Source of the DNA: a virus
Lineage: Duplodnaviria > Heunggongvirae > Uroviricota > Caudoviricetes
DNA length: 45,355 nt
Virus record (IMG/VR): IMGVR_UViG_3300028888_000058
Coordinates: 103,060 to 148,414 of that record
Direction: 5' to 3' (one strand)
Of this stretch, positions 673 through 33,224 are shown piece after piece. Within the stretch, counting starts at the first letter, position 1. Each line of letters starts with the position of its first letter. The notes below the pieces were generated by a model. It had not been told where the DNA came from and made no database searches. It saw nothing but the letters and a program-made list of their open reading frames with translations. The position numbers were made by a program, and so were the translations under genes.

Positions 673-933
673 ATGAAAGATATTAATAATTTTATAACTG
701 AAATGAACTCTGAAGAACAAATTAAAAATACTATTTGGTCTACAGATTGTAAAGGAATTAAAGATCCAGATATATTTATCATAAATATTGAAGATAAAAT
801 AATTGAATTTGCAACTATTGAAGAAATTAAAAAAGATAAAGATTTCTTTGGAGAAGCAACAGAAAAAGTTTTAAAATTAAAACCAATGGAAAGTTTTGAG
901 GATTCTGTAAATATATATGTAAAATTAAAATAA
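673..933 (+). CDS. tagged hypothetical protein (putative internal head protein)
   Basis: 86 aa; N-term MKDINNFITE; first gene of tagged cluster 1. Confidence 0.75.
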   Translation: MKDINNFITEMNSEEQIKNTIWSTDCKGIKDPDIFIINIEDKIIEFATIEEIKKDKDFFGEATEKVLKLKPMESFEDSVNIYVKLK

Positions 934-935
934 TT

Positions 936-1313
936 ATGAAAGATATTAAAGAATTCATAATGGAATCTAATGCAAATCATGTTATATTCAATGCTTGCAT
1001 GGAATTAGATAATAATGAAAATATTTATAAACAATATTGGGCATTAGCACAGAATCTTGTAAAGAAACATAAATCAGGTGATTTTAAAATTGAAACACTT
1101 GAGAAATCATCAGTTGTATCTAAATTGGCAACTGCAACATTAAAGGCTGCTAAATCTGGAAATTTATCTACTGATGATAGAAAACGTCTTTATAAGTTTA
1201 TTATTGGTAATCTTCTTAAGACAATAAGTAATGAAGGTGAAGACTTGACAAAAGAAGAAGAGGATTATATGATTGAATGGGACTATAATAATTCTGATAA
1301 ATGTGGTTGGTAA
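936..1313 (+). CDS. tagged hypothetical protein
   Basis: 125 aa; N-term MKDIKEFIME. Confidence 0.8.
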   Translation: MKDIKEFIMESNANHVIFNACMELDNNENIYKQYWALAQNLVKKHKSGDFKIETLEKSSVVSKLATATLKAAKSGNLSTDDRKRLYKFIIGNLLKTISNEGEDLTKEEEDYMIEWDYNNSDKCGW

Positions 1314-1334
1314 ATAAATATATTGATAATATAA

Positions 1335-1685
1335 ATGAAAAATATTACAAACTTCATTAATGAAAGTAAAGATTGTCACAATAAATGGGCATCTCTTGTA
1401 AAAAAATTATCTGATGAAGATAAAGAATGGATTAAAAAATATGCCATAGATAAAGATAATAATACAAATTACACAATGGAAGAAATTGAACAACGTTTGT
1501 GGAAAGGTGATTTGAAAGATCAATGGGATACAATGAATAATTATCTTATAGATCATATTCTTACAAGAGATAATGGAATAACACAAAGAGATGTTATCAA
1601 TACATACAGTTTAGCTACAATCGGAAAACAATCAATGATTGAAGTTTTAGCACAAACAATATATATGATTAATCGTAAACTATGA
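1335..1685 (+). CDS. tagged hypothetical protein
   Basis: 116 aa; N-term MKNITNFINE. Confidence 0.8.
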   Translation: MKNITNFINESKDCHNKWASLVKKLSDEDKEWIKKYAIDKDNNTNYTMEEIEQRLWKGDLKDQWDTMNNYLIDHILTRDNGITQRDVINTYSLATIGKQSMIEVLAQTIYMINRKL

Positions 1686-1897
1686 AAGATATTATTGAAT
1701 CTTTAAAACAAACTGATTATTCAGAATGCCATGATGTTAAATGCATTAAAGAACTTACAATAGAACGCAAGACAGGAACTAAGACATTTAAAGTTGATAC
1801 AGAATATAAAGCATCAAAAATTAATGATAATTGGTGGCTTATAGATCAAATAGGTATATCTTCTAAAGAATTCAAAAAATATTTTAAAGATATTTAA
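1682..1897 (+). CDS. hypothetical protein with shortened tag variant
   Basis: 71 aa; MKDIIE (Glu at 6); ATGA overlap with the upstream gene. Confidence 0.65.
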   Translation: MKDIIESLKQTDYSECHDVKCIKELTIERKTGTKTFKVDTEYKASKINDNWWLIDQIGISSKEFKKYFKDI

Positions 1898-2274
1898 TGA
1901 AAAATATTAATAATTTCATATCTGAAAAATTAATTATAAATAAAAATATTAAAATGAGCAGTACTGGTGAAGATTATTGGTCATGTAAAGATATTTCTAA
2001 ATCTGATATGATTAAGTTCACAAAGAAAGCATTGAAAGAATCTAAAGTAAAACCAGAAAGAATTTTAGATGAATTATCAGGATATGAAGATATTGATGAT
2101 TTACAACAAGCATATGAAAATGAAGAATTACCTTCTTATTTAACATTTGAACAAAAATTTTTAGATATGATTGCTAATGATGATAAATATAAGTGTAAAG
2201 AAGTAAACATAGCTCAAGCTTTATGGATTCACGCATATGATATTATAAACGAAATTATAAATAAAGGTGAATAA
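1897..2274 (+). CDS. double-tagged hypothetical protein
   Basis: 125 aa; MKNINNFISE-KLIINKNIK; TAATG overlap. Confidence 0.8.
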   Translation: MKNINNFISEKLIINKNIKMSSTGEDYWSCKDISKSDMIKFTKKALKESKVKPERILDELSGYEDIDDLQQAYENEELPSYLTFEQKFLDMIANDDKYKCKEVNIAQALWIHAYDIINEIINKGE

Positions 2275-2280
2275 TTAAAT

Positions 2281-2649
2281 ATGAAATCAATAGTTGATTC
2301 GATTAATGAAAAACTAATCATCAATAAGAACACTAAAATATCATCTAAAAGAGATTATATAGAGCCAGAAGATATAGAAGATATGGAAACTCCAGGTAAA
2401 GATTACTTTGGAGATGATGTTGTTATTGTAGGAAAACCATTTACAACAAAACCAAAAGATCAAAATTATTTAGAAACACTTAGATATATACGAAAATCAA
2501 AATATGTAGTATATAACGATTTAGCAGATATAGATAATTTAAATGATTATGATGATGATACATATTTCGTATATGCCGCTCATAAAGGTGATAAAGAATT
2601 AAACTGTTATACATACGGCCCTGAAGGTGTTTACGGGGTAGATGAATAA
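2281..2649 (+). CDS. double-tagged hypothetical protein, paralog of 2676..3035
   Basis: MKSIVDSINE-KLIINKNTK; shares YIEPE..ETPGKD..G....I.GKPF and the C-terminal YG...VY..D with the next gene. Confidence 0.8.
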   Translation: MKSIVDSINEKLIINKNTKISSKRDYIEPEDIEDMETPGKDYFGDDVVIVGKPFTTKPKDQNYLETLRYIRKSKYVVYNDLADIDNLNDYDDDTYFVYAAHKGDKELNCYTYGPEGVYGVDE

Positions 2650-2675
2650 TCAAATATAAATAATAGTTATATAAA

Positions 2676-3035
2676 ATGAAAGATATAAATAATTTCATAT
2701 TTGAAAAACTTATTATAAATAAAAATACTAAGTTTAAGAAAAATTATATAGAACCTGAAAATATCAAAGGACCAGAAACTCCAGGTAAAGATTCTAATGG
2801 TGAAGATATAACTATTATAGGTAAACCATTTAAATCTATAAAAGATAAAAGTTATACAGAAAACATTAGGATAATTAAAGATAAAGGTGATATCATTAAA
2901 AAAGATTTATATGAATTTGATGAAGACGAGCTTGGAGATTTTGAATGGTTTGTATATATAAAACGTAAAACATCTGGGCATACTGTTTTTTGCTGTGGAT
3001 ATGGATTAAACAGTGTTTATGCTATAGATAAATAA
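2676..3035 (+). CDS. double-tagged hypothetical protein, paralog of 2281..2649
   Basis: MKDINNFIFE-KLIINKNTK; same core motifs. Confidence 0.8.
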   Translation: MKDINNFIFEKLIINKNTKFKKNYIEPENIKGPETPGKDSNGEDITIIGKPFKSIKDKSYTENIRIIKDKGDIIKKDLYEFDEDELGDFEWFVYIKRKTSGHTVFCCGYGLNSVYAIDK

Positions 3036-3064
3036 GTGATTACAATTAAATATAAGATAATATA

Positions 3065-3604
3065 ATGAAAGATATTAGAAATTATATATTAGAACATAAT
3101 ATAGTTGAAGCTGTTGAAGCTTATAGATTAAATGAAGTTGAAGCTACATATTTAGTTCAACCTGAAGAAATTATACTTCAAGCACCAGAAACATATCAAG
3201 AATCTGATATTCAACAATATATGGATGATATGTGGCTTAATTCTTTACCATCAGGACAAGATTATTCAGAACAATTCTTTGGAAAAAATAATGACAGTAT
3301 ATCAGATGTACATTTTGAATATGATACATTTGAGCATATTGATATAGAACCAAAAGAATTCATCGAATGGGATTCAAAATTTGATCTTAAGAAAACTAAT
3401 GATGATGTTAAATTAGATTACTTTAAAATTAAAAATCTTAAGTATATAATTAATTTTGATAGATTTGATATGGTTGATGTAACTGATGATAATGTTGAGG
3501 AAAAACTTAAAGATATATTCCGTGCAGCAGAATCTAATGATGCAAATAAAGATTATCCTATTGAAATAAAATTTGATGAAGACTCATTAGAGTATAGAAA
3601 ATAA
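3065..3604 (+). CDS. tagged acidic hypothetical protein
   Basis: 179 aa; MKDIRNYILE; very D/E-rich. Confidence 0.8.
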   Translation: MKDIRNYILEHNIVEAVEAYRLNEVEATYLVQPEEIILQAPETYQESDIQQYMDDMWLNSLPSGQDYSEQFFGKNNDSISDVHFEYDTFEHIDIEPKEFIEWDSKFDLKKTNDDVKLDYFKIKNLKYIINFDRFDMVDVTDDNVEEKLKDIFRAAESNDANKDYPIEIKFDEDSLEYRK

Positions 3605-3605: not shown

Positions 3606-4553
3606 ATGAAAGATTTAAATAATTACATATTAGAAAATACTAATAAATTATATGAAAATGAATTATTAGAAAGATTATGCAATCATATTTCTATAATAGT
3701 ATATACAAAATATGGTAGTGGTATAATCCCAAATATTCAATTAAAAGAATCATTAGGAAATTTTAAAAATGCTCATAAAGTATTAAATCATATAATTACT
3801 GAACTTAAATCTAATTTTAATTCACAAGAAATTAATTGTGATAATTATGATGTATTTTTTAAGAAAATTAAAATAGATATAATAAATAAAGATTTAATTA
3901 ATGCAAGTTATTTAAATATTGATAATGATGTTTTAGAAATTGAAATATTATGTTTAGATAAAGAAACATTTATTGATTATATTGATGATTATATAGAATT
4001 AATATTGCATGAAATGTTACATGGATATGAAGATTATTGTAGAAAATCATCAAATAAAAAAGGCATATTTGATCTTTGGAATATAAATTATAAAAAATCT
4101 TATATTAATATAAATAATATTAATGATATTAAAAGATATTTAAGTAGATGTAAATATTTCTTTAATTCACAAGAACGTAATGCATATTTTTCATCTTTAG
4201 AATTATGTATTAAAGATATTATAAAAAAATATCATATTAGTGCAGATAATTTAGATTACGAAAAATTTAAAAGAGCAATTAAAGATCATCATATTTGGAA
4301 AATATATTTTGATTTAGGAACATTTATTATAGGATTAGAAAATATAAATAATGATAATAAAAAATATATAGAAAAACAATATAATTCATTATTTGAAAGT
4401 AATAAATCATTTAATGAAATAAAAAAAGAATTAAATATATCATGGAAAAAATTTGATAAAAAATTTAATCAATTAGTTCCAAAGATTCTTTGTAATAATA
4501 TTCAAATTAAAGAATTTAAAAATTATTCATTTAATATTGATAAATTAATTTAA
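3606..4553 (+). CDS. tagged protein with HExxH zinc-metallopeptidase-like motif
   Basis: 315 aa; MKDLNNYILE; LILHEMLHGYE with a downstream QERNAY glutamate; function inferred from motif only. Confidence 0.55.
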   Translation: MKDLNNYILENTNKLYENELLERLCNHISIIVYTKYGSGIIPNIQLKESLGNFKNAHKVLNHIITELKSNFNSQEINCDNYDVFFKKIKIDIINKDLINASYLNIDNDVLEIEILCLDKETFIDYIDDYIELILHEMLHGYEDYCRKSSNKKGIFDLWNINYKKSYININNINDIKRYLSRCKYFFNSQERNAYFSSLELCIKDIIKKYHISADNLDYEKFKRAIKDHHIWKIYFDLGTFIIGLENINNDNKKYIEKQYNSLFESNKSFNEIKKELNISWKKFDKKFNQLVPKILCNNIQIKEFKNYSFNIDKLI

Positions 4554-4579: not shown

Positions 4580-4939
4580 ATGAAAGACATTAAGCAATTT
4601 ATCTTAGAAGGTAAGAAACATGTAGATACTGCAACATTAGCAGATTTTTATCAATGGTATTGTGGATGCGAAGCTCCAGATGGTAAAGCAGATAAATCAA
4701 TAATTAATCAAGAAGACTGTGAAGGACTTTTAGATAATGGTTGGTTTGATAATTTTGATGATTCAGATCCAGAAAAAGGATGTAAAGAAATTGCAGAATT
4801 CTTTAAAAAGAACTGGGATAAACAAATTAAAGTAACATCAACAGATATTGGTAATTGCTGGTCAATATCATTCAAATTAGATGGTAAAGAATTTGAATGT
4901 GATGCTCTTAATTACTTTGGTGGAGAAATTGAATATTAA
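4580..4939 (+). CDS. tagged hypothetical protein
   Basis: 119 aa; MKDIKQFILE. Confidence 0.8.
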   Translation: MKDIKQFILEGKKHVDTATLADFYQWYCGCEAPDGKADKSIINQEDCEGLLDNGWFDNFDDSDPEKGCKEIAEFFKKNWDKQIKVTSTDIGNCWSISFKLDGKEFECDALNYFGGEIEY

Positions 4940-4944: not shown

Positions 4945-5229
4945 ATGAAAGACATTAAAGAAAAACTATTAGAAACCCAGATTAATGAAGATAAATTTGC
5001 ATATTCATGGCAAAATGCTTTCATACATGCTATTATATCATTAAATGAAGTTGATGGAGAAGTACCATGCAGAGAAATAGTCAATAAGTGGTTTGATGAT
5101 GAACAATCACTTCATGAACTATATACATTTCTATATCGTATAGATTGTAAGCCTGAAAAGAAAGATGTAAAATCAATAGTTGAAGCAATTGTAGATAAAG
5201 CATCTAAATTAAAAACATATAAAATATAA
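4945..5229 (+). CDS. tagged hypothetical protein
   Basis: 94 aa; MKDIKEKLLE-TQINE. Confidence 0.75.
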   Translation: MKDIKEKLLETQINEDKFAYSWQNAFIHAIISLNEVDGEVPCREIVNKWFDDEQSLHELYTFLYRIDCKPEKKDVKSIVEAIVDKASKLKTYKI

Positions 5230-6176: not shown

Positions 6177-6395
6177 ATGAAAGACATTATAAGTAAAATA
6201 AATGAAAACAAAGGATATACAGAATATTCTTTAAAAGAAATATTTGATACTTATTTTAATAAACCAAATGTTTCAGATGGTAATGAAAATATCTTATATG
6301 ATTTAATAATGTATGTAGCATCAAAAAAACCTACCAGTGCAACTAAAGTAGTTATTGATCAAGCAATTGAAATAGTTGATAAAATGGGTTGGTAA
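6177..6395 (+). CDS. tagged hypothetical protein
   Basis: 72 aa; MKDIISKINE. Confidence 0.75.
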   Translation: MKDIISKINENKGYTEYSLKEIFDTYFNKPNVSDGNENILYDLIMYVASKKPTSATKVVIDQAIEIVDKMGW

Positions 6396-6524: not shown

Positions 6525-6827
6525 ATGAAAGATATAGTAAATTTTATTAATGAAGCAATAGATAAAGTTTTAAGTGGATTCTGTATTATAGATATGTCAG
6601 ATGAATCATTAGTATCAAATTGGGGCACTGGTGATCTTGTGAAATGCATACATGAAATTCAAAAACTTAAGAAAGAAAACCAAGATAAAGAATATTGGAT
6701 AGTTGCTCAATATAATGAAATATATGATTTAGAAGATACTGGCAATTATAGAGTCTTATCTTCAAGAGAATATAATGAAAATGAAACAGATTTTGGCATT
6801 AATCCAAAATTCAAAGAATACTTATAA
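6525..6827 (+). CDS. tagged hypothetical protein
   Basis: 100 aa; MKDIVNFINE; last gene of cluster 1. Confidence 0.8.
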   Translation: MKDIVNFINEAIDKVLSGFCIIDMSDESLVSNWGTGDLVKCIHEIQKLKKENQDKEYWIVAQYNEIYDLEDTGNYRVLSSREYNENETDFGINPKFKEYL

Positions 6828-6850: not shown

Positions 6851-6891
6851 TAGACAATATTTAGAACTTTTTCTAAGTATTGTCTATTTTT
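6851..6891 (+). terminator. intrinsic terminator closing tagged cluster 1
   Basis: TAGACAATA-TTTAGAA-CTTT-TTCTAAG-TATTGTCTA hairpin followed by TTTTT. Confidence 0.65.
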
Positions 6892-6918
6892 GATATAAAT
6901 ATATAGACTTAAATTTAA

Positions 6919-15084: not shown

Positions 15085-15135
15085 TTTTTATTTTTGATAT
15101 ATAAAAAAATGTAAATAAGATATATAGAAATTATA

Positions 15136-17990: not shown

Positions 17991-18041
17991 AAAATCATTT
18001 TTTTTTTATTTTTATATAAATACAAAAAAATAAGTAAAGTT

Positions 18042-19052: not shown

Positions 19053-19073
19053 TAAAAATTGTTGGAGGATATA

Positions 19074-19204
19074 AATAATTAAAAGCTGTACTTATGTACA
19101 GCTTTTTGTATTTTTTATATTTTTGAACTATATTTAAATATATGTAAATTAAAAATAAAATAAATTAAGGAACTATTAAATTAGTTCCTTTTGTTTTCTA
19201 TATT
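19074..19204 (+). repeat. intergenic direct repeat copy 2
   Basis: AAAAGCTGTAC-TTAT-GTACAGCTTTT; TTGTAT-N17-TATATT (19106-19134); AAGGAACTA..TAGTTCCTT. Confidence 0.9.
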
Positions 19205-21135: not shown

Positions 21136-24100
21136 ATGGGAAAATCATTACTTATTTCTGCCAATGCTGCATATGTATTTAATAATATAGGTAAAGTAAC
21201 TTTTAATGATCCATCTTTAATATATAATGGTTTAACTATAACTGCTCAAGAAGATTTAACACTTAGATTTTCAAATGATCTTGAGTATAGAAATAATGTA
21301 TCAATATTATGGAAACCATTAAAAGCAAATACTCCATTATCAATTGAAAATGGAGAAACTGTTACATTAAAAGGTAAGTTAATTCCAACAACTAATGGTA
21401 TAGGTACATTTACAGTATCGGGCAATTTTACAGCATCAGGTAATATATTATCATTAATTAATGATGGTACAATGCAAAATTATTCATTTAAGAATTTATT
21501 TAGAAATTGTACTACATTAACTGATGTAAGCAATATAACATTACCAGATTATGTTACACAAAACTGTTATGAAGGAATGTTTTATGGATGTACATCAATA
21601 GAGGAATCACCAACATTATCTGTACAAACATTACAAAATAATTGTTATACAGATATGTTTTATGGATGTTCTTCTCTTAGAGAAATAACATGTAAAAACA
21701 TTTCAGATATATCTCAGTATGTTAATTTAAACTGGGTTTATGGAGTTGCATCAGCTGGTGTTTTTGAAATAGATTCTGAAGGAAATTGGAATGATACAAA
21801 TAAAGCATCTCATATACCAGAAAACTGGGAAATAACAACTGGTGTTTTGACTAATAAATATTTAACATTTAGAATATTAACACCTGGTACAATATTATGG
21901 GAAAACACAACAAGTGATACTACATCAAAAACTATATCATATAGTAAAGATGATGGTGAAACTTGGACAGATATAACATCATCTTTAGAAGGTGCTGAAA
22001 TAACTGTTGTAGCTGGAGATAAAGTTTTATTTAAAGGAAACAATACAGCATACGGGTATTTTGCAAATAATACTGACAAAAGTTCTAAATTTGGTGGTAC
22101 TGCCAAATTTAATGTTGAAGGTAATATAATGTCACTTATAAGTGGTGATGATTTTGCTGAATCAACATCATTTAATAATAATGCGCAGGTTTTCCGTAAT
22201 TTATTTCAAGGAACAAATGTTGTATCTGCTAAAAAATTAGTGCTTCCTGTTTTAACTCTTACACTTTCATGTTATCAATCACTATTTAGTGATACACAAT
22301 ATCTTGACGAAGTTCCTGAGCTTCCTGCAACAACATTAGCAGAATCATGTTATAAAGCGATGTTTAAAAACGCAGTATCTATTACAAAAACACCAAATTT
22401 ATATTCGACAAGTTTGGCTAAAAATTGTTATTTTCAAATGTTTTATGGGTGTACTTCATTAACAACAGTTACAGAATTACCTTTAGCTACGATGAAAGAA
22501 GGTTGTTATCAAAGTATGTTACAAGGATGTACTTCATTAACGTCAATATCAACATTTACTATTTCATCATCAGCTGTAAGATGTTGTAGAGCTATGTTCT
22601 TAGGTTGTACATCATTAACAAATATTTCATGTTCATTGACAGCAACATCATTATCAACAGAATGTTATTATGAAATGTTTAATGGATGTATTTCTTTAAC
22701 AACCACTCCTGCATTACCAGCCACAACATTAGGAGCAGCATGTTATTATGATATGTTTAAAGGATGTACATCTATAACATCTGCTCCTGTATTGTCTGCT
22801 ACAACAGCATCATCAGAATGTTATAGAAGTATGTTTGAAGGATGTACTTCATTAGTAACTCCACCTGCATTACCTGCGACAACATTAGGAACTAATTGCT
22901 ATAGAAGTATGTTTTATGGATGTACTTCATTAACAACTGCTCCTGCATTGCCTGCAATGACATTAGCAGATAGTTGCTATTATAATATGTTTTATAATTG
23001 TACTTCATTAGCAACCGCACCTACATTGCCTGCAACATCGTTGGCAAATAGTTGTTATGCAAATATGTTTTATGGATGTACATCATTAACAACAGCTCCT
23101 GTATTACCAGCAACAACGTTGGCAAATAGTTGTTATTCATATATGTTTGGAAAATGTTCATCATTAACAACTGCACCAGATTTATTAGCAACTACTGTAT
23201 ATAATCAGTGTTATGTTGGAATGTTTAGATATTGTTCGTATTTAACTTATGTTAAATGCATGTATAATGAAGTTGACAATGGTGCAACTGATTGGATAGG
23301 TTATATGTTAAGCGATGTTGCTGCAACAGGAACATTAGTAAAAGATATAAATATTGATTGGAGTGGAGTAGTGCCAAGTGGATGGACAATAGTTGATGAA
23401 GGTGTATTAAAACCAACAATATCATTTGATGGTCAAGAAATAACATTAGATTGTCAGACATCAGGTGCGACAATATATTATCAATTAAATAATACAGGTA
23501 ATTATATTGCATACACTGGTGTAATATCAATATCAAGTGATACTGCAGTTAGAACATATGCAGAATTGAATGATGTGACTAGTCCTAAGGTTTATAGTTA
23601 TTGTGTTTATGCTCCAACATCATTATTAGATCCAACAATTGAATTTAATTATGGAACAACTATTACATTATCTTGTTTAACCCTAAATAGTACAATATAT
23701 TATAGATTAAATAATACAGGTAGTTTTATTCAATATACAGAACCGATAATAATTAATGCAACTACAACTATTGAAGCATATTCTGAATTAGATGGTACAA
23801 CAAGTAATACAGTAAGTGAAACATTTACATTCATTGATTATAGTCAACAATATTTCACAATTGAATCATTAGAAGATAATAATACAATTAATATAATTAA
23901 AACAAATAAGCCAAGTAATATAAACTTATCTTATTCAACTGATGATGGCACAACATGGACAGACTTAACAATAAGTGATACTACTAATTTTGCAACTATT
24001 AATACTGGTGATAAGATAATATTCAAAGGTAATAATTTAAGATTAGGAACTGCATGGGACACATATTATAGATTTAATGGATCTAAAACATTTAATGCAT

Positions 24101-24714
24101 ACGGTAATATAATGTCATTATTGAATGGAGATAATTTTGTAAATACTACTGAATTAAATTCAAGTACAAATAACCATTTTGTAGGATTATTCTATGGAAC
24201 GACAACATTAATTGATGCAAATAAATTATATCTTTCTGCATCAACATTATATTATAATTCTTATAATGGTATGTTCCGTGGATGTACAAATCTTAAGTCT
24301 GCCCCACAAATACAAGCAACAACTTGTGCTGAAAATGAATGTTGTTCTTCAATGTTTGAAGGATGTATTAATCTTGAAGTTGCACCAGAACTTAACTTTA
24401 CTACTTTAGCACAAAACTGTTGTAAACGTATGTTCTGTATGAGTAGAAATTCTAATATAACAACACCTAAGATGACAAAATCTCCTATATTACGTTGTGC
24501 AACTACAGCATCTGGTTGTTATGAAGAAATGTTTAGAGGTAATGGTAATTTAATTGAAGTTACATGTCTTAAGACAGATAATACTGATGCTTGTAAAAAT
24601 TGGTTAGCAAATACATCATCTACTGGTACATTTAAGAAAGCATCCGGTAAATCTTGGTCTACTGGAACTTCTGGTATACCATCTGGTTGGACTGTAGAAG
24701 ATTATACAGAATAA
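21136..24714 (+). CDS. large BspA/LRR-type repeat protein with two chitobiase/FN3-associated-like Ig domains (putative adhesin/receptor-binding)
   Basis: 1192 aa; 13 tandem 26-aa CYxxMFxGCTSLTTAPxLPATTLAxx repeats; two PTIxF...ITLxC.T...TIYY.LN.T domains; repeated SYSxDDGxTWTD...GDKVxFKGNN...GNIMSL modules. Confidence 0.75.
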   Translation: MGKSLLISANAAYVFNNIGKVTFNDPSLIYNGLTITAQEDLTLRFSNDLEYRNNVSILWKPLKANTPLSIENGETVTLKGKLIPTTNGIGTFTVSGNFTASGNILSLINDGTMQNYSFKNLFRNCTTLTDVSNITLPDYVTQNCYEGMFYGCTSIEESPTLSVQTLQNNCYTDMFYGCSSLREITCKNISDISQYVNLNWVYGVASAGVFEIDSEGNWNDTNKASHIPENWEITTGVLTNKYLTFRILTPGTILWENTTSDTTSKTISYSKDDGETWTDITSSLEGAEITVVAGDKVLFKGNNTAYGYFANNTDKSSKFGGTAKFNVEGNIMSLISGDDFAESTSFNNNAQVFRNLFQGTNVVSAKKLVLPVLTLTLSCYQSLFSDTQYLDEVPELPATTLAESCYKAMFKNAVSITKTPNLYSTSLAKNCYFQMFYGCTSLTTVTELPLATMKEGCYQSMLQGCTSLTSISTFTISSSAVRCCRAMFLGCTSLTNISCSLTATSLSTECYYEMFNGCISLTTTPALPATTLGAACYYDMFKGCTSITSAPVLSATTASSECYRSMFEGCTSLVTPPALPATTLGTNCYRSMFYGCTSLTTAPALPAMTLADSCYYNMFYNCTSLATAPTLPATSLANSCYANMFYGCTSLTTAPVLPATTLANSCYSYMFGKCSSLTTAPDLLATTVYNQCYVGMFRYCSYLTYVKCMYNEVDNGATDWIGYMLSDVAATGTLVKDINIDWSGVVPSGWTIVDEGVLKPTISFDGQEITLDCQTSGATIYYQLNNTGNYIAYTGVISISSDTAVRTYAELNDVTSPKVYSYCVYAPTSLLDPTIEFNYGTTITLSCLTLNSTIYYRLNNTGSFIQYTEPIIINATTTIEAYSELDGTTSNTVSETFTFIDYSQQYFTIESLEDNNTINIIKTNKPSNINLSYSTDDGTTWTDLTISDTTNFATINTGDKIIFKGNNLRLGTAWDTYYRFNGSKTFNAYGNIMSLLNGDNFVNTTELNSSTNNHFVGLFYGTTTLIDANKLYLSASTLYYNSYNGMFRGCTNLKSAPQIQATTCAENECCSSMFEGCINLEVAPELNFTTLAQNCCKRMFCMSRNSNITTPKMTKSPILRCATTASGCYEEMFRGNGNLIEVTCLKTDNTDACKNWLANTSSTGTFKKASGKSWSTGTSGIPSGWTVEDYTE
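22270..23260 (+). repeat. coding tandem 78-bp repeats (13 units)
   Basis: Cys-Tyr codons recur from 22270 to 23209 (939 bp = 12x78+3). Confidence 0.85.
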
Positions 24715-24753
24715 TAAATATTAATATACAAAATATTAAATAATTTATATAAA

Positions 24754-26292
24754 ATGGGAAAAATAACAAAAACTGATATATTATTTTCATCTAATTTAGG
24801 TAGTATTCATTATGAAGGATTAGATAGTATAGAAGTATTTAAGATAACTGCTTTAGAAAATTTAACATTATCATTTTCAAATAATCTTGAATATAATAAT
24901 GGTACTAATTCATATTGGAGTTTTTATGAAGCAAATACAGAAATAGAATTAAGCTCAGGTAATAGCATAGTATTCAAAGGAAGTTTGATACCATTTATGA
25001 ATAATGGTATAGGTACATTTACTGTATCTGGAGATTTTGAAGTATCTGGCAGGCTTCTTGCATTAATTAATCATAACTATATGAGACCTTATTCATTCAA
25101 GGATTTATTTAAGAATTGTACTACATTAATAGATGCAAGTAATTTGATAATGCCTAAACACACTGAAGTTGGCTGTTATGAAGGGATGTTCTATGGATGT
25201 TCTTCATTAACAGATTCCCCAATATTAAGAGCAGAAACTTTATCTGAAGACTGCTATAAAGATATGTTCTATGGATGTACTTCATTAAATCATATCATAT
25301 GTTATAATGTTTCAGATATATCAGAATATGTTAATCAAAACTGGATATCTGGTGTTGCTGGTTCTGGTACATTTGAACTCAATTATTTAGGAACATGGAA
25401 TAATACTAATAAAGCATCTCATATTCCATCTGGGTGGATTATTAATGATGAATATGGATATCCATGGGAAAATGAATATCTTCAATTTGATGTATTAACT
25501 GATGGCACAATATTATGGAAAGGTACAGGTAATAATGAAATATATAGTGTATTAACTATATCATACAGTAAAGATAATGGAACTACATGGACAGATATCA
25601 CAGCTACATCTGAAGGTACTGAAATTAATGTACTAACTGGAGATAAAGTATTAATAAAAGGTAATAATTCTCGTTATGCATGGAATAATACAAAATATTC
25701 TGCTTTTACTGGTGGTACTGCAACATATAATGCTAAAGGTAACATAATGAGTCTTATTTATGGAGATAATTTTATTGGACAAACTACATTAACGGAAGAA
25801 CATGCATTATCTCAAGTATTTAACGGATCAAATATTGTTTCTGCAGAATATTTAATATTACCAGCAACAACATTAACTACAGATTGTTATCGAGCTACAT
25901 TTGCACATAGTCATTTATTAACAAAATCTCCTAAAATATTACCTGCTACAACTTTATCAACAGAATGTTATTATTATATGTTTGATGACTGTGTTTCAAT
26001 GACAACACATCCTGAATTGCCAGCAGAAACATTAGTATATCATTGTTATCACGGTTTATTTCATGGTTGTGTTTCTCTTAATTATATTACATGTTTAGTG
26101 CAAAATATAATAAATGATAGTTTATTTGCTTTTCTTTGGGATAATACATTGGGAAGTATTAATGTAGTGTTTCCAACTGGTGTATTTATTAAACATGTTA
26201 ATGCAACATGGCCTAAAGCTGGTGGTAATAGTGCTACTGGCATACCTTCAACTTGGCTCATTAAAAATTATAAAGAATATTATGATATATAA
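24754..26292 (+). CDS. shorter paralog of 21136..24714 (BspA/LRR-type)
   Basis: Shares the N-terminal module (ITA.E.LTL.FSN.LEY...GIGTFTVSG...FK.LF.NCTTL...ASHIP..W) and one SYSKDNGTTWTD...GNIMSL module with about 3 repeats. Confidence 0.75.
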   Translation: MGKITKTDILFSSNLGSIHYEGLDSIEVFKITALENLTLSFSNNLEYNNGTNSYWSFYEANTEIELSSGNSIVFKGSLIPFMNNGIGTFTVSGDFEVSGRLLALINHNYMRPYSFKDLFKNCTTLIDASNLIMPKHTEVGCYEGMFYGCSSLTDSPILRAETLSEDCYKDMFYGCTSLNHIICYNVSDISEYVNQNWISGVAGSGTFELNYLGTWNNTNKASHIPSGWIINDEYGYPWENEYLQFDVLTDGTILWKGTGNNEIYSVLTISYSKDNGTTWTDITATSEGTEINVLTGDKVLIKGNNSRYAWNNTKYSAFTGGTATYNAKGNIMSLIYGDNFIGQTTLTEEHALSQVFNGSNIVSAEYLILPATTLTTDCYRATFAHSHLLTKSPKILPATTLSTECYYYMFDDCVSMTTHPELPAETLVYHCYHGLFHGCVSLNYITCLVQNIINDSLFAFLWDNTLGSINVVFPTGVFIKHVNATWPKAGGNSATGIPSTWLIKNYKEYYDI

Positions 26293-26337
26293 AAATATAA
26301 ATAAATGAATATATAATAAATAGATTAATTATAATAA

Positions 26338-28425
26338 ATGAAAACAATAGTTATAAATAAATCAGGTGTTCCTGCTAGTCCATTAGTCGCTGCAGAATCA
26401 ATTTATAATGTTTCACCATTATTTGCATCTTCTAAACCAGTAGGTCCATGGGTTTATGCAAAAAAGAACACTACTGATGTTAATGAAAATATAGAATTAC
26501 CATATTCTGTTAATAGAATTGATGGACATTCTGGAAACTATGCAACAGGTTATTTTACATTTACATCAACAATTACTATTCATAAGTTACAACCAACTTA
26601 TCTTTGGTTTGACCATGCAGATCATTCTGCAGAAGTATATATTGGAGAAACATTGGTAACTAAACACTGGGGTGGATATAATGCATTCTTTGTAGATATA
26701 ACTGATTATATTCAAGTTGGCACAAATAATTTAACTGTTAAAATCAAAAATAATGAAGGTAATAATCTTCCACCCGCAGCTGGTGACTTCAATCGTAATG
26801 CAACATTAGGTAAAGTTAAATTATTGACTAGCCCAGTATTGCCATCGCCTGAATATGGATATGATGGATTCCATATTACATCTACAGTAACTGATGCACA
26901 AGCAATTATGACAGTTAAAACAACAATTCCAACATATGCTGATGTTGTATTAAAAGTCAATGATGAAGAATTTAGTTATGTAGAAAGAAAATTTGGTAAA
27001 GGTGATATTACATTTACAGTTACTATAGATAACCCTCATCTTTGGAATGGTACATTAGATCCACACCTTTATGATGTGACTTTAGAATTATATTATAATG
27101 AAGAACTTAATCTTCAGTTGAAACGTCCTTATGGATTAAGATACTTTGATTATGTTTGGGATGATGCAACTATTGAAGGATATGATTCAGAACATCCATA
27201 TACAGGTTTCTTATTAAATGGCAGCCCATATTTGTTAAGAGGTGTTTGTTCTCATCATGATTTAGCAAATAAAGCTAATGCATTGACTGTAGAAGACATC
27301 AATAATGATTTTGATATCATAACTGAACTAGGTGCTAATTTCTTACGTCTTGCTCATTACCCTCATCCAAAACAAGTTTATGACTATTGTGATAGATTAG
27401 GTATTATTGTACAGACTGAAGCACAATGGGTAAACTCTTCAACATTAACAATGCCAGAAGCATATTGGACTCATCTAGGTGAAGAAATTGAAGATATGGT
27501 TAATCAACATTATAATCACCCATGTATATTATTCTGGGGTGTTGGTAATGAAATTAATACATCAGTTACAAATTCAACTGAAGGTAAAGATTTTGTTAAA
27601 TCAAAAATTGAAGGATATAGAACACAAATTAGAACATTAATGCCAGGCGCTTGGGTAGGCTATACTGTATCACATGGAACAGATAACGGATTAGGAGTAT
27701 TTAATAATCCTACTGTTGATTGGGTTGGAAACAATATATATGTAGGTTGGTACATAGATCAAAATTCAAACAATCCAACAAACCGTCTTAATACAAGAAT
27801 AAATAATAATGGTACTACACCAACTGCATATTCAGAATATGGATGCGGCGGTTCTTCAACATGTCACTCAACAAGTTATATGTCAACTACGACACGTGGA
27901 AATAACCCAAGACATGATATTGAATATATGATGTGGTTACACGAAGGACATATTGCAGCTATTAAGAATTTCCCACAATTGTTATTTACTTCTCAATGGC
28001 AATTATTTGATATTGCTGTTTCTAATAGACAAGAAGGTTATAAAGTATGTTTGGATGATGAAACTGTTACTGATAATAATGATTTGAAATTCTTAAATAA
28101 CAAAGGATTGGTTGAAAGAGATCATAAAACAAAGAAAGATACATTCTATATTTATAAAGCATGGTGGAATCCAACTCCATTTGTACATATCTGTCAAAAG
28201 AATTTTACAAAGACTTCAGATAGAGTTATCAAATGCTATACAAATTCAACAGAGCAATTCTCATTATATGTAAATCCAACTGGTGAAAATGATGTTCCTG
28301 TAGAAACACTTACACCAACTAATAATATTTTAGAATTTACTGCTGCAACATTTAGTTCAGGAGATGTAATCGTAGTAACTAATGGAACAGTTGAAGATAC
28401 TTTTGTTATAGATCCAACTGAATAA
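26338..28425 (+). CDS. glycoside hydrolase family 2 (beta-galactosidase/beta-glucuronidase-like)
   Basis: H.GGY..F..DIT, LNG.PY.LRGVCSHHD, GANFLRLAHYPH, HYNHPCILFWGVGNE (acid/base Glu), SEYG (nucleophile Glu), NNKGLV..D.KTKKD.FY.YKAWWN; no signal peptide. Confidence 0.92.
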   Translation: MKTIVINKSGVPASPLVAAESIYNVSPLFASSKPVGPWVYAKKNTTDVNENIELPYSVNRIDGHSGNYATGYFTFTSTITIHKLQPTYLWFDHADHSAEVYIGETLVTKHWGGYNAFFVDITDYIQVGTNNLTVKIKNNEGNNLPPAAGDFNRNATLGKVKLLTSPVLPSPEYGYDGFHITSTVTDAQAIMTVKTTIPTYADVVLKVNDEEFSYVERKFGKGDITFTVTIDNPHLWNGTLDPHLYDVTLELYYNEELNLQLKRPYGLRYFDYVWDDATIEGYDSEHPYTGFLLNGSPYLLRGVCSHHDLANKANALTVEDINNDFDIITELGANFLRLAHYPHPKQVYDYCDRLGIIVQTEAQWVNSSTLTMPEAYWTHLGEEIEDMVNQHYNHPCILFWGVGNEINTSVTNSTEGKDFVKSKIEGYRTQIRTLMPGAWVGYTVSHGTDNGLGVFNNPTVDWVGNNIYVGWYIDQNSNNPTNRLNTRINNNGTTPTAYSEYGCGGSSTCHSTSYMSTTTRGNNPRHDIEYMMWLHEGHIAAIKNFPQLLFTSQWQLFDIAVSNRQEGYKVCLDDETVTDNNDLKFLNNKGLVERDHKTKKDTFYIYKAWWNPTPFVHICQKNFTKTSDRVIKCYTNSTEQFSLYVNPTGENDVPVETLTPTNNILEFTAATFSSGDVIVVTNGTVEDTFVIDPTE

Positions 28426-29387: not shown

Positions 29388-29855
29388 CTATTCATTAAAT
29401 TCGACTACTTTTGATCCACCAAAAGGTCCATACATACCTAATAGTTTTTCTGAAGCACTTGCATCAAAACGTAAACTATTTTTTTTGAATATTGTTTCTT
29501 TATCTTCTGCATCACTAATAAAACTGTTTCTGTTCATAACAGATAGATTATTCTTCTTAAAGTCTTTAGCTATCTTCTTATCTTTAAACTTATGACCTGC
29601 AAGAATAAAATATTTAAACTTATTAGAATCCCATTTATTCTTTGATAAAAAATTTTCAAGTTTTTCTTTTAATTCCTTTCCTTCTTCATCAGTTATATAA
29701 GGTTCCTTCTGAAGTCTTCCTTTATCAATTTCATATAGTTTATCAATTTCAAAATGATCCCAGATACTTTTAAGTTCTGGAGACATTGAATTATTAATTT
29801 TGATATCCTTGTTAATAATTAGTTTTTCTAATATAAATGATTTGATTTTTTTCAT
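29388..29855 (-). CDS. double-tagged hypothetical protein
   Basis: MKKIKSFILE-KLIINKDIK; 155 aa. Confidence 0.8.
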   Translation of the reverse strand: MKKIKSFILEKLIINKDIKINNSMSPELKSIWDHFEIDKLYEIDKGRLQKEPYITDEEGKELKEKLENFLSKNKWDSNKFKYFILAGHKFKDKKIAKDFKKNNLSVMNRNSFISDAEDKETIFKKNSLRFDASASEKLLGMYGPFGGSKVVEFNE

Positions 29856-29866: not shown

Positions 29867-30262
29867 TTATATTTTTTCAACTTTACATAATATCATATTT
29901 TGATCATTATATGTAGATATAATATTTGATTCTTTATATCTTATACCACTTTTAGATTTTAACAAATAACCATCCTTAGCATATTTGACCCAATAATAAT
30001 CTAAAGATGCAGTATAGTTTCCATTATCTAATGGTTTTAACCAATGAAACCTATCACCTTCATCAGAATCTCTTTTAATCATTACTATAGCTTCTTCTGG
30101 AGATTCAGCATGATCTACTATTTGTAGTTTGTCTCCTATCATATAATTATATTCTTTACCATCAATTTCTATAATTATATTATCATCATCGATATGTTTA
30201 TTAATTTTAGTATTCTTATTGATTACAAATTTTTCTAATAATATATGTTTTAATGATTTCAT
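29867..30262 (-). CDS. double-tagged hypothetical protein
   Basis: MKSLKHILLE-KFVINKNTK; 131 aa. Confidence 0.8.
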   Translation of the reverse strand: MKSLKHILLEKFVINKNTKINKHIDDDNIIIEIDGKEYNYMIGDKLQIVDHAESPEEAIVMIKRDSDEGDRFHWLKPLDNGNYTASLDYYWVKYAKDGYLLKSKSGIRYKESNIISTYNDQNMILCKVEKI

Positions 30263-30277: not shown

Positions 30278-30757
30278 TTATTTTTTATACCATTTAGGTG
30301 GATTATCTTCTAATTCTCCACCATGAAACATATATTTCATGTTTTTTACATTACTTACATCCCATTTTGATATATCTCCATTAAAATGTGAATAAGCAAA
30401 CATTTGAAACATATTTTCAACATTTCTTACATCCCAATTAGATACGTCTCCATTTTCTCCAGTAAATTTTGAGCCTAAAAACATTTCTCTCATATTGGTA
30501 ACATTACTAACATCCCATTCAGATATATCACCATCAAAACTTTTATTTACATCATTATCACTAAATACTGCAGACATATCAGTTATTTCTGAAGTATCTA
30601 TATCATTAAGATCTGCAGTATAACCACGTTTATTTATTAATCTATAAACAGTTTGTATTAGTTCTTTATTAGTCTTTGGATGATAATGATACTTATCTAT
30701 TTTAGTGTTCTTATTGATAATAAGTTTTTCTATTATAATATCTTTAAGGTTTTTCAT
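30278..30757 (-). CDS. double-tagged DUF285/BspA-like repeat protein (short)
   Basis: MKNLKDIIIE-KLIINKNTK; DISEWDVSNVTNMREMF-type repeats; ends NPPKWYK. Confidence 0.8.
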   Translation of the reverse strand: MKNLKDIIIEKLIINKNTKIDKYHYHPKTNKELIQTVYRLINKRGYTADLNDIDTSEITDMSAVFSDNDVNKSFDGDISEWDVSNVTNMREMFLGSKFTGENGDVSNWDVRNVENMFQMFAYSHFNGDISKWDVSNVKNMKYMFHGGELEDNPPKWYKK

Positions 30758-31092
30758 AATACAAAATCTTTTATTTGTTCGTATAATTCTTCTTTATAGT
30801 TTTTGACATAATCTATTAAATCTTTTTTATCAACATTCATAAATTCTGCCATGTCTTCCCATAAGAACAATCTTCTGAAATATTCTGCGATATCTTTATG
30901 AAAGAATTTATCAACTATCTGTAACCGTGTATCATATTCATTGCCATCAAAAGTACCACTTGCTTGAAAATACATACATAACTCATCTATTATTTTATTC
31001 TGTTCATCATCAGATAAATTAGTCTGTTTATTGATTTTTGTGTTCTTATTAATGATTAGTTTTTCTATTATGATATCTTTTATGTCTTTCAT
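30754..31092 (-). CDS. double-tagged hypothetical protein (start revised to ATG 31092)
   Basis: MKDIKDIIIE-KLIINKNTK; the upstream TTG start in the ORF track lies inside a duplicated gene relic. Confidence 0.8.
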   Translation of the reverse strand: MKDIKDIIIEKLIINKNTKINKQTNLSDDEQNKIIDELCMYFQASGTFDGNEYDTRLQIVDKFFHKDIAEYFRRLFLWEDMAEFMNVDKKDLIDYVKNYKEELYEQIKDFVL

Positions 31093-31204
31093 TTTATACC
31101 AAGATATTTTTTGTAAATTTTGCAAACGTTTAACTTTCGATTTATCAGCAATTGATTTTGGATTCCAAATATTTATATGATTGTGCTTTATTATGCCTTC
31201 ATAT
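31090..31204 (-). pseudogene. duplicated 3' fragment of gene 31900..32370
   Basis: About 90% identical by hand alignment to 31901-32014; encodes YEGIIK.NHINIWNPKSIADKSKVKRLQNLQK with a +1 A frameshift. Confidence 0.85.
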
Positions 31205-31903
31205 GTTTTTATACCATTTTGGTGGATTTTTTTCTAAAGGACATCCACTAAATATATCGTCCATATGTTCAACATTACTAACATCCCATTTTGATATATC
31301 ATTTTTAAAATTAGAATTTTCAAACATTTTTGTCATATTTTCAACTTTGCTGACATTCCAATTAGATATATCACCATTAAATATAGAATTACTAAACATA
31401 TTCCACATGCTTGTTACATTACTAACGTCCCATTTTGATATGTCACCAGTAAAAGATGATCCTGAAAACATATTTGCCATAAATTTAACTTTGCTAACAT
31501 TCCATTTTGATATATCACCATTAAATCTAGAATCATGAAATATATATCCCATATTATTTACATGGCTTACATCCCACTTTGATATATCTCCATTTTCTCC
31601 TGTAAAATTAGAATTCATAAATGTCATATACATTGTTTTAACATGACTTACATCCCACATTGATATATCTCCATTAAATTTAGAATTATAAAACAATTCA
31701 TTTAATGATGTTACATTAGATACATCTATATCATTAAGGTCTGCATCATTACCACGTTCTTCAATAAGTTTTTTAATTGTTTTCTTTAATTCATTTAAAT
31801 TTTTAGGACGATAATTATATTTACGGAATTTAGCATTTTTATTAATAATTAGTTTTTCATTTATTTCTAAATTTTCTTTTAGTATATCTTTTAAGTTCTT
31901 CAT
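31199..31903 (-). CDS. double-tagged DUF285/BspA-like repeat protein (long)
   Basis: MKNLKDILKE-NLEINE-KLIINKNAK; about 6 FNGDISxWDVSxVxxMxxxF repeats; ends NPPKWYK. Confidence 0.82.
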   Translation of the reverse strand: MKNLKDILKENLEINEKLIINKNAKFRKYNYRPKNLNELKKTIKKLIEERGNDADLNDIDVSNVTSLNELFYNSKFNGDISMWDVSHVKTMYMTFMNSNFTGENGDISKWDVSHVNNMGYIFHDSRFNGDISKWNVSKVKFMANMFSGSSFTGDISKWDVSNVTSMWNMFSNSIFNGDISNWNVSKVENMTKMFENSNFKNDISKWDVSNVEHMDDIFSGCPLEKNPPKWYKNI

Positions 31904-32370
31904 TTTATATTAAGATATTTTTGTAAATTTTGTAAACGTTTAACTTTTGATTTATCAGCAATTGATCTTGGATTCCATATATTTATATGATCAATCTTTA
32001 TTATGCCTTCATATATTTTTAATAAGAATTTTATAAATTCCTTTGGTTCATTATCAAGTAGTTCAGCAAATTTTTCATATCTTTCTGGTGGTTCTAATCT
32101 TATGAAATCTTTATAGTCATCTACAGTAAATTTTTTCTTTTTTTGACGGTTCTCCCTAAGATGATCCAATATGACTAATTGTATATCACGAATTTTATTT
32201 GAATTGACTCCATATTTATCTTTGAATGGTTCCTTTTCAGCTTTTGTATATGCTCCAGAAACTTCATCATAATCATTATGAAGTTCTTCATCAGTAAATT
32301 CTTTTTCTTTTATATTTAAATGATGATTAATAATTAGTTTTTCTGATATGATGTCTTTTAGGTTCTTCAT
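31900..32370 (-). CDS. double-tagged hypothetical protein
   Basis: MKNLKDIISE-KLIINHHLNIK; 156 aa. Confidence 0.8.
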   Translation of the reverse strand: MKNLKDIISEKLIINHHLNIKEKEFTDEELHNDYDEVSGAYTKAEKEPFKDKYGVNSNKIRDIQLVILDHLRENRQKKKKFTVDDYKDFIRLEPPERYEKFAELLDNEPKEFIKFLLKIYEGIIKIDHINIWNPRSIADKSKVKRLQNLQKYLNIK

Positions 32371-32379
32371 AGCAATTTA

Positions 32380-32841
32380 TTATTTGTTTATAAAAAATAT
32401 AATTCCAATATTTTTAATATCATATGTTAATAAATTAAGTTCATTATTTGAATATATTCCTGTACGATCATATTTGTCTTTATATAATTCATCTTTATAT
32501 ATTTCATCACCATTATCTTTAATGAACTTTATAAATTCTGTTTTATCTAATATAATTTCTATACTATTATTTTCAAAATCTTTACGAAGATCTTTTTCTA
32601 AATAATCATTATCAGGATCAATTAATCCGTATTTTTCTAATACATCTATTGTACTTAATATAATAAGATGTTCAACATTTTCTTCTTTAACCCAATTTGC
32701 TATTGCTTTAACTTCAGCATCTTCAGCATCTTCAGGTTCAGAATATATAAACCTTAAAATTGTATCAACAAAAGTATTTCTAATTTTTGTATTTTTGTTA
32801 ATAACTAATTTCTCTAATATAGAAGTTTTTAAGTCTTTCAT
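32380..32841 (-). CDS. double-tagged hypothetical protein
   Basis: MKDLKTSILE-KLVINKNTK; 153 aa. Confidence 0.8.
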   Translation of the reverse strand: MKDLKTSILEKLVINKNTKIRNTFVDTILRFIYSEPEDAEDAEVKAIANWVKEENVEHLIILSTIDVLEKYGLIDPDNDYLEKDLRKDFENNSIEIILDKTEFIKFIKDNGDEIYKDELYKDKYDRTGIYSNNELNLLTYDIKNIGIIFFINK

Positions 32842-33224
32842 ATCTTAACAATTTTTAATTTATTATCATCCCATTTATAACCTGCTTTCTTTAATGCTTC
32901 CATGAATTCGTCGCATTTTTCTTCTGAAGCTAATTTATATCTTTCTAGTCTTTCTGAAATAGTACCAACACCAGTATCTACACCAACATCTAATTTTTTT
33001 CTTTCATCACAAATATATGTTGCATGATATACTATAGCATCATCAGAAGCATTATTTACATGAAAATCTTTGTTTAATCCTTTATATATAAAAAGTAAAT
33101 TTTCATTCATCTCAACTATATCTCCGTTTTGAGCAGTCTCAATAGTCCAATCATCTAAATTTCTTATTTTTATATTTTTATTGATGATTAGCTTTTCGTT
33201 TATAAATTCTATTATTTGTTTCAT
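32838..33224 (-). CDS. double-tagged hypothetical protein
   Basis: MKQIIEFINE-KLIINKNIK; 128 aa. Confidence 0.8.
   Translation of the reverse strand: MKQIIEFINEKLIINKNIKIRNLDDWTIETAQNGDIVEMNENLLFIYKGLNKDFHVNNASDDAIVYHATYICDERKKLDVGVDTGVGTISERLERYKLASEEKCDEFMEALKKAGYKWDDNKLKIVKI

Follow-up and report, generated by a model that had tools for sequence, protein, structure and literature searches.

A shared N-terminal decapeptide on two dozen mostly unrelated proteins of a Lak-related gut phage resembles the capsid-targeting sequence of T4

A 45,355-nt stretch of a tailed-phage genome (Caudoviricetes; IMG/VR record IMGVR_UViG_3300028888_000058, positions 103,060–148,414), referred to here as the window, carries 24 genes whose products are mostly unrelated to one another and begin with a common leader of the form M-K-x-[IL]-x-x-x-[IL]-x-E, called here the tag. 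The window comes from the ~440-kb genome of an uncultivated phage of ruminant guts that is related to the Lak phages. Fourteen of the tagged genes form an array directly behind a sigma-factor gene (array 1), two lie between the genes for the subunits of topoisomerase II, and eight make up a minus-strand array behind recA (Table 1; genes are named by their first coordinate). Comparison with phage T4 suggests that the leader is a T4-type capsid-targeting propeptide, which would be removed by an S77 prohead protease and which, spread through recombination, has come into use on an unusual scale. The probability of this reading is put at about 0.62.

All 24 tagged open reading frames (ORFs) claimed in an earlier note on this DNA exist, and 22 of them match the strict pattern exactly. 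When the window was searched as DNA for the slightly wider pattern M-K-x-[ILFM]-x-x-x-[ILFM]-x-E, 23 matches were found against a mean of 0.50 expected (100 dinucleotide shuffles; largest shuffle value 3); 22 of these are ORF starts and the other, at 44903, is an out-of-frame chance match. The tag is also as confined as the earlier note had claimed, since none of the 49 other ORFs of at least 60 residues fits it, and it is on none of the window's replication genes. Met1, Lys2, Ile/Leu8 and Glu10 are invariant in the 22 exact tags, and residues 4, 7 and 8 are all hydrophobic in 19 of the 24. At the DNA level, the codons used for Ile and Leu vary (ATT, ATA, ATC, TTA, CTA, CTT and CTC), and AT-richness is the only feature common to the 40 nt upstream of the tagged genes. 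Conservation is therefore at the peptide level, and selection acts on the tag peptide, not on the DNA. Two other accounts of the shared start were considered and rejected: a DNA-level cassette or RNA regulatory site, because of the codon variation, and a signal peptide or lipoprotein signal, the leader being charged and amphipathic and lacking a hydrophobic core. Leaders resemble each other more within arrays than between them, and the tagged genes together occupy ~11.2 kb, or ~25% of the window.

The claim that the proteins are mostly unrelated after residue 10 holds with one qualification. BLASTP of the post-leader parts gives only two paralog pairs, 2281/2676 (41% identity, E 4e-20) and 30278/31199, but 11 of the 24 genes share an extension at residues 10–21, E-K-L-[IV]-I-N-K-[ND]-x-K-[IMF], which brings their common leader to 21 residues. 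An AlphaFold2 model of the 159-residue DUF285 protein encoded at 30278–30757 shows residues 23–159 with predicted local distance difference test (pLDDT) values of 86–98 and residues 1–20 as a detached helix with values of 47–55. Because this helix is detached and of low confidence, the whole 21-residue leader is predicted to lie outside the folded domain, as an address peptide should. Both divergent leaders noted earlier, MKDIIE (gene 1682) and MKSINNYIDNINLSSFLFE (gene 5246), are real. Alignment shows the latter to be the canonical form carried by its orthologues, MK[SN][IL]N[NSL]YIFE, interrupted by nine inserted residues in such a way that L-F-E still stands immediately before a conserved Ser, while the former has I-I-E at residues 4–6, as in T4 gp67 (MEGLIE). 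Both variants thus retain hydrophobic-x-Glu directly before the mature part. Gene 31199 carries two sites in succession, MKNLKDILKE-NLEINE-KLIINKNAKF.

The T4 mechanism is itself already well known. The T4 internal proteins IPII and IPIII begin with MKTYQEFIAE, as had been stated and as can be read from the T4 record AF158101. The tags share with this capsid-targeting sequence (CTS) M1, K2, a hydrophobic residue at 4, F/Y7 (13 of 24), I8 and E10 and, like it, constitute an N-terminal decapeptide on otherwise unrelated proteins that ends in [IL]-x-E. This ending is the [L/I]-x-E recognition site of the T4 protease gp21, with Glu10 and Ile/Leu8 each present in 22 of 22 exact tags and I-I-E and L-F-E in the two variants. 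Early [IL]xE sites are likewise found in the T4 record in the head-core proteins gp24 (L-R-E10), gp67, gp68 and gp22, and at L-T-E65 of gp23.

A gp21-like prohead protease and [IL]xE sites in the capsid precursor, for which the earlier note had proposed to look, were both found. The walk upstream of array 1 was done on a Logan contig of a close relative (L012/L015), not on the window's own contig; this relative encodes a protein identical to the product of tagged gene 673–933, and L015 has 96% nucleotide identity with the window across the aligned stretch around that gene. Located ~16 kb before the tagged array, the protease gene of L015 encodes 564 residues, the first ~190 of which are a Peptidase_S77 domain (PF03420; 44.8 bits, cut-off 27). 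This domain keeps the residues matching His85 and Ser140 of T4 gp21, and the best match of the protein in the PDB is 5JBL, the T4 gp21 structure. The protease gene is followed by that of a 589-residue Gp23-family capsid protein (98.6 bits) and then by a sheath-like gene. In the capsid protein, hydrophobic-x-Glu occurs only within residues 1–42 and next at residue 159 or beyond; the last propeptide site, I-H-E|S, is conserved in 13 relatives, is replaced by I-Y-E, M-F-E or L-T-E in distant members, and parallels L-T-E65|A of T4 gp23. T4 is thus matched in this lineage by a gp21-family protease in which the catalytic His and Ser are the same, and by a gp23-type capsid protein whose propeptide ends in I-x-E.

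The remainder of the L015 protease (L015:2470–3597) is an acidic, scaffold-like tail in which KPKDEP repeats come first and then about nine 12-residue repeats in tandem, reading W-[IV]-x-E-E-F-A-P-E-[VI]-Q-N. Each of the latter contains an aromatic-hydrophobic-x-Glu site similar to the F-I-x-E with which the tag ends. The tail holds 15 [IL]xE sites, compared with 6.2±2.1 in shuffled sequences, and nine aromatic-hydrophobic-x-Glu sites, mostly in the tandem repeats, compared with 1.0 expected; the T4 scaffold gp22 has 16 [IL]xE sites compared with 5.7 expected. The protease, the capsid sites and the sites of the scaffold-like tail appear to fit a conserved T4-like cleavage specificity.

Relatives at 58–66% capsid identity keep the tag while its residue 2 drifts (MHSLRQYITEKLHLNKG, MININNYISEKLHLNKD, MRNFKDIIVEKLKISGN), and in these the tagged arrays stand directly upstream of the protease gene, with a tagged gene located between the protease and capsid genes in one of them. 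This linkage to head genes, together with the hydrophobic-x-Glu kept in both variants, was counted in favour of capsid targeting. Array size differs even between near-identical phages, with 8 versus 4 genes behind recA and 2 versus 1 between the topoisomerase genes; one relative has 15 consecutive tagged genes, ~6 of which have a homologue among the tagged genes of the window. The tag is portable, as had been proposed, in both senses, one leader being found on unrelated cargos and one cargo with different leaders: DUF285 proteins of related contigs (P0022, P0023) carry MKQIIEFINEKLIINKNTKI, which is the leader of the unrelated window gene 32838–33224, and the DUF285 genes of the window carry MKNLKDII… instead. 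A nucleotidyltransferase with a GxFxPxHxGH motif is tagged in one relative (L034:5338–7155, MKRLIQYILE followed by VVIYGGKFQPFHKGH) and untagged in two others (L029:1288–2103 and L032:5794–6765), so that the tag has been gained or lost on this enzyme. A homology search with residues 1–40 of one tagged protein returned almost only orthologues, and in IMG/VR the extended leader turned up in just four stretches, on three contigs; both searches say little on the wider range of the tag.

Matches to the strict tag in the complete genome of Lak-B7 (MK250026.1) are near chance (nine, with three for the control). An unbiased scan of its N termini reveals two other leaders on unrelated proteins. Leader A, found on 11 genes, reads M-[NK]-K-x-I-[KR]-x-L-x-E-S-L-F-D-D and has hydrophobic-x-Glu at residues 8–10; after the Glu, a conserved SLFDD and an acidic run are observed. 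Recoded in-frame TAG codons occur in 10 of these 11 genes and in 115 of 207 size-matched ORFs (roughly P = 0.015). Leader B, carried by at least nine unrelated proteins, most of whose genes are without recoded TAG, extends over 27 residues, …KKxLYESIMxxVSKxVKKKLNE, with sites at L-Y-E and L-N-E. The DUF285 family provides the only Lak-B7 match to any cargo of the window: gene 500325–501800 starts with MKKYIYNLME-SLFDD, adjoins the S77 protease gene and contains 10 recoded TAG codons. Lak-B7 thus puts its own leader on this cargo and has it beside the head protease.

Candidate expression signals fall into two groups. The motif TTTATTTTTATWWAAWT is located 28–99 nt upstream of the protease, capsid, sheath and tube genes in relatives with 48–99% capsid identity, and its intergenic occurrences in ~360 kb of loci are almost all at head- or tail-type genes. 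In the window, motifs of this type lie 21–25 nt upstream of tagged genes 17217 and 18042, the copy at 18042 being identical to that of the relatives' capsid gene. The box TATTTTTG, which fits the Bacteroidota -7 promoter consensus TAnnTTTG, is found upstream of the topoisomerase genes and of gene 6919 (15089–15096, 19118–19125 and 6885–6892), as well as upstream of both topoisomerase genes in relative L003. These distributions suggest two promoter classes, a host-type one (TATTTTTG) and a phage-type one (the G-free motif). The sigma-factor gene before array 1 is preceded by host-type boxes and, further upstream, by a motif copy with two mismatches; its full-length orthologue, L015:18376–19536, matches phrog_351, RNA polymerase sigma factor (E 4e-16). 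The window contains two sigma-like genes, 2–649 (phrog_351) and 12131–13348 (Sigma70_r2 region, E 4e-6), and the product of either could read the phage-type motif. An error-free 1036-nt contig from a sheep-gut RNA library spans 18033–19068, just downstream of the motif, and provides a weak hint of expression; contigs of this kind do not reveal how strongly, from which strand or between which ends a region is transcribed, and they may stem from carried-over DNA.

Most cargos have no family assignment in Pfam or PHROG, gene 3065–3604 being among those without a match in either, and an Atlas search with gene 18042 gave no match. The cargo of gene 5246 shows a weak ParBc_2 match, a match to phrog_2859 and ParB leads in the Atlas, and belongs to a large viral family with 744 homologues. 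The HExxH cargo of gene 3606 is possibly a zincin-like metallopeptidase, its Atlas neighbours being weakly M48-, IrrE- or SprT-like (TM 0.25–0.38; a lead only). One copy of every cargo amounts to ~3,720 residues in total. Since tens of copies of each would still be below the load of T4, which carries ~1000 internal-protein molecules (PMC3012670), head capacity is no objection to packaging.

Taken together, these observations are compatible with the following mechanism. The leader would form a short amphipathic helix, hydrophobic at positions 4, 7 and 8, which might dock the newly made protein onto the prohead core, the protease-fused scaffold-like tail being the likely partner. The gp21-family (S77) protease would then cut the leader after Glu10, with Ile or Leu at P3, and, by analogy with T4 IPI–III and Alt, the trimmed proteins would stay in the DNA-filled head and exit with the DNA at infection. 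Unrelated genes that gain, swap and lose the leader quickly would thereby supply a large and fast-changing set of virion-borne proteins; their role in host takeover or anti-defence is speculative, although plausible.

The packaged-cargo interpretation of the earlier note thus draws support from the portability of the tag, the match to the T4 CTS, the protease of the lineage and the sites in capsid and scaffold, whereas the acidic cargos, the extension and the positions of the arrays do not suit a simple copy of the T4 internal proteins. Several points weigh against it. The protease and capsid genes were verified on the close relative and not on the window's own contig. Eleven leaders are conserved for 11 residues past the proposed cut (E|KLIINKNTKI), an extension that a pure ten-residue CTS leaves unexplained. 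Among the mature cargos, 18 of 24 are acidic (isoelectric point (pI) 4.2–6), in contrast to the basic, DNA-binding IPII and IPIII of T4; the cargos are not small, basic and lysine-rich, which is a feature of the T4 internal proteins and not of the CTS mechanism. The mature cargos show no significant shortage of internal [IL]xE sites (observed-to-expected ratio 1.04; control motifs 1.2–1.4). Finally, late co-expression with head genes is suggested by the upstream motif for 17217 and 18042 alone among the 24 tagged genes, the 14-gene array standing behind the sigma-factor gene with its host-type boxes and the 8-gene array behind recA.

The absence of internal depletion and the small, acidic nature of many cargos, which recalls T4 internal peptides, would suit proteins that are loaded and cut but serve as dispensable filler of the core or scaffold, or as internal parts of the head, to be degraded or retained and not to act in the host. 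T4 gp22, gp67 and gp68, which are degraded in the head, carry early [IL]xE sites as well. This explanation is nevertheless unlikely, given that the cargos include folded and probably active domains (DUF285 solenoids, ParB-like, HExxH) and that high turnover between near-identical phages suits conflict genes better than structural filler. It is quite improbable that the leader is instead a handle for a partner outside the capsid, either a degradation or unfolding tag for the phage ClpX (38065–39246) or a helix by which many accessory proteins would dock on a chaperone or hub protein that times or localises them. ClpX reads N-terminal motifs, a homologue is encoded in the window, and such a partner would be consistent with a leader modelled as a detached helix, with conservation past Glu10 in 11 genes and with most arrays lacking a clear late promoter. 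It would leave unexplained the invariant Glu10 and Ile/Leu8 kept in both variants, the T4 CTS match, the linkage to protease and capsid genes in relatives and in Lak-B7, and the structural-gene motif before two tagged genes; in addition, the tag does not seem to fit the published N-motifs of ClpX.

Recombination bears on the origin of the arrangement. If genes were captured by recombination behind an existing start region, the shared start could be a by-product and the peptide might only aid translation initiation, in keeping with leaders that are more alike within arrays and swap between cargos, and with the intergenic direct repeat that flanks tagged gene 18042. However, synonymous codons vary freely and the upstream DNA is unconserved, the hydrophobic residues at 4, 7 and 8 and Glu10 are still kept at 58% capsid identity and, as a different sequence, in Lak-B7, and the 9-residue insertion kept hydrophobic-x-Glu. 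Recombination accounts for the spread of the tag but not for its conservation, and a mere by-product is accordingly very unlikely.

With capsid targeting as the preferred reading, the system would differ from T4 in several respects. The scale is larger, with 24 tagged genes in 45 kb compared with three or four in T4; most of the cargos are acidic, and enzyme-like and repeat domains are found among them; about half of the leaders carry the conserved 11-residue extension beyond the cut site; and the protease is fused to its scaffold. The system described here is, moreover, known from sequence alone. The polymorphic ip loci of T-even phages (Repoila et al. 1994) are hypervariable, different genes keeping only the CTS, and are viewed as encoding diverse proteins that counter defences; foreign proteins have also been loaded into T4 heads by means of the CTS (PMC3012670). 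The arrays described here similarly turn over between near-identical phages, but where the T-even loci comprise few genes, these form runs of 8–15 consecutive tagged genes at several places, with leaders exchanged.

For the giant phages phiKZ, 201phi2-1 and SPN3US, tens of MDa of internal protein, a head protease that cuts this protein after Glu and its entry into the cell are reported (PMC5694885, PMC7411985). The likeness lies in giant phages with internal head proteins cut after Glu, a cut that is only presumed here. A phiKZ-like inner-body system does not match what is found in this lineage, in which the head genes are of T4/Lak type (Gp23, S77) and the leaders are a uniform decapeptide with Ile or Leu at P3. 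Propeptides of phiKZ-type phages vary in length and sequence and have the site small-x-Glu, and we know of no single portable decapeptide common to dozens of unrelated proteins in these phages. The polyvalent proteins of Iyer et al. 2017 are said to be delivered with the DNA and reportedly unite peptidase domains of the zincin type with ParB-like and further conflict domains. Similar, although weak, domain leads (zincin-like, ParB-like) are present among the cargos, which are here separate small proteins, each with its own tag, unlike one giant multidomain protein. A search of 8.1 million PMC papers and of bioRxiv yielded none that connects a capsid-targeting sequence with Lak phages, megaphages or huge phages, and the Jug-phage paper makes no mention of one.

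Table 1. Positions of the tagged genes and associated elements in the window, with examples of the Lak-B7 leaders.
Feature	Position	Strand	Remark
Sigma-factor gene, C-terminal part (386 aa full)	2–649	+	directly before array 1; untagged
Tagged, 86 aa, MKDINNFITE	673–933	+	identical protein on L012/L015
Tagged, 125 aa, MKDIKEFIME	936–1313	+	6/10 residues as in T4 MKTYQEFIAE
Tagged, 116 aa, MKNITNFINE	1335–1685	+	
Short-variant tag, 71 aa, MKDIIE	1682–1897	+	L012 orthologue starts MKDIVE
Tagged, 125 aa, MKNINNFISE + extension KLIINKNIKM	1897–2274	+	
Tagged, 122 aa, MKSIVDSINE + KLIINKNTKI	2281–2649	+	paralog of 2676–3035
Tagged, 119 aa, MKDINNFIFE + KLIINKNTKF	2676–3035	+	
Tagged, 179 aa, MKDIRNYILE	3065–3604	+	net charge ~-25, pI 4.2
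Tagged, 315 aa, MKDLNNYILE	3606–4553	+	HEMLH (HExxH) motif in cargo
Tagged, 119 aa, MKDIKQFILE	4580–4939	+	acidic, net charge -12
Tagged, 94 aa, MKDIKEKLLE	4945–5229	+	
Derived tag MKSINNYI[DNINLSSFL]FE, 304 aa	5246–6160	+	ParB-like cargo
Tagged, 72 aa, MKDIISKINE	6177–6395	+	
Tagged, 100 aa, MKDIVNFINE	6525–6827	+	final gene of array 1
Structural-gene-type promoter-like motif TTTATTTTTAATAAAAT	17176–17192	+	25 nt before tagged gene 17217
Tagged, 209 aa, MKQLKMFINE	17217–17846	+	inserted between two topoisomerase II subunit genes
Direct repeat of ~100 nt, left copy	17891–17991	+	intergenic, flanks gene 18042
Promoter-like motif TTTATTTTTATATAAAT, exact copy	18005–18021	+	21 nt before tagged gene 18042
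Tagged, 336 aa, MKNILTYINE	18042–19052	+	
Direct repeat, right copy	19104–19202	+	intergenic
Tagged, 155 aa, MKKIKSFILE + KLIINKDIKI	29388–29855	-	
Tagged, 131 aa, MKSLKHILLE + KFVINKNTKI	29867–30262	-	
Tagged, 159 aa, MKNLKDIIIE + KLIINKNTKI	30278–30757	-	DUF285 repeat cargo, Pfam E 6e-29
Tagged, 112 aa, MKDIKDIIIE + KLIINKNTKI	30754–31092	-	start most likely at ATG 31092, not at upstream TTG 31125
Double-site leader, 234 aa	31199–31903	-	DUF285 cargo, Pfam E 2e-67
Tagged, 156 aa, MKNLKDIISE + KLIINHHLNI	31900–32370	-	
Tagged, 153 aa, MKDLKTSILE + KLVINKNTKI	32380–32841	-	
Tagged, 128 aa, MKQIIEFINE + KLIINKNIKI	32838–33224	-	first gene after recA
Structural-gene-type motif, one mismatch	34348–34364	-	62 nt upstream of recA; weak
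Lak-B7 leader A, examples	21989–23059(-), 35361–36425(+), 67074–68312(-), 224893–225819(+), 326839–328755(-), 500325–501800(-)		
Lak-B7 leader B, examples	41507–41923(+), 101598–102023(-), 198635–199648(-), 231343–231915(-), 532936–533313(+)		

The two copies of the direct repeat around gene 18042 are 88–90% identical, and the repeat comprises a promoter-like box and two hairpin/T-run elements. It may be the footprint left when a cassette was inserted between the genes for the topoisomerase subunits, and it recalls the mobile regulatory cassettes of T4-type phages.

The window as a whole has a G+C content of 23–31% and encodes a split T4-type topoisomerase II, RecA, ClpX, sigma-like proteins, an AAA ATPase and large glycan-binding or GH2 proteins. 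As megablast of 17 kb of the window against GenBank phages gave no match, the phage was identified by protein searches. The small subunit of topoisomerase shows 96% identity to a copy on an IMG/VR contig and 48–49% identity to those of Prevotella Lak megaphages, all ORFs of the window read through in the standard code, and error-free contigs of the window are present in a sheep-gut RNA library, with related contigs in bovine-gut libraries; the assignment to a Lak-related phage of ruminant guts follows from these observations. Between the topoisomerase genes and the minus-strand array, three large genes (21136–28425) encode proteins of 1192 residues (CHB_HEX_C/Fn3_assoc), 512 residues (without family) and 695 residues (a GH2-family glycosidase), which may be glycan-binding or glycan-degrading virion fibres. 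Relative L003 has proteins of 523, 524 and 697 residues at the matching place, so that this region is also variable. The ClpX gene (38065–39246) encodes a zinc finger, AAA_2 and ClpB_D2-small, and there is no ClpP gene in the window.

More generally, we would give even odds to the proposal that Lak-related megaphages possess a sequence-readable address code that loads into the virion dozens of unrelated and rapidly exchanged proteins, encoded by about a tenth of their genes, and that drifts in each lineage while hydrophobic-x-Glu is kept at residues 8–10. Examples of such a code would be MKxIxxFIxE in the present phage, M[NK]KxIKxLxE-SLFDD and the 27-residue LYE...LNE in Lak-B7, and MKTYQEFIAE in T4, with DUF285 re-addressed per lineage. 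If the tag works as in T4, the virion-carried proteins of an uncultivated giant phage of the gut or rumen could be listed from its genome alone, and this list is long and changes between near-identical phages, as genes engaged against host defences would be expected to do. The finding, if true, would provide dozens of proteins of unknown fold as candidates for host takeover or anti-defence, a natural example of an address peptide and a protease site that co-evolve, and possibly a tag with which foreign proteins could be loaded into Bacteroidota phages. Should the address code hold, the injected arsenal of uncultivated giant phages would be readable directly from sequence.

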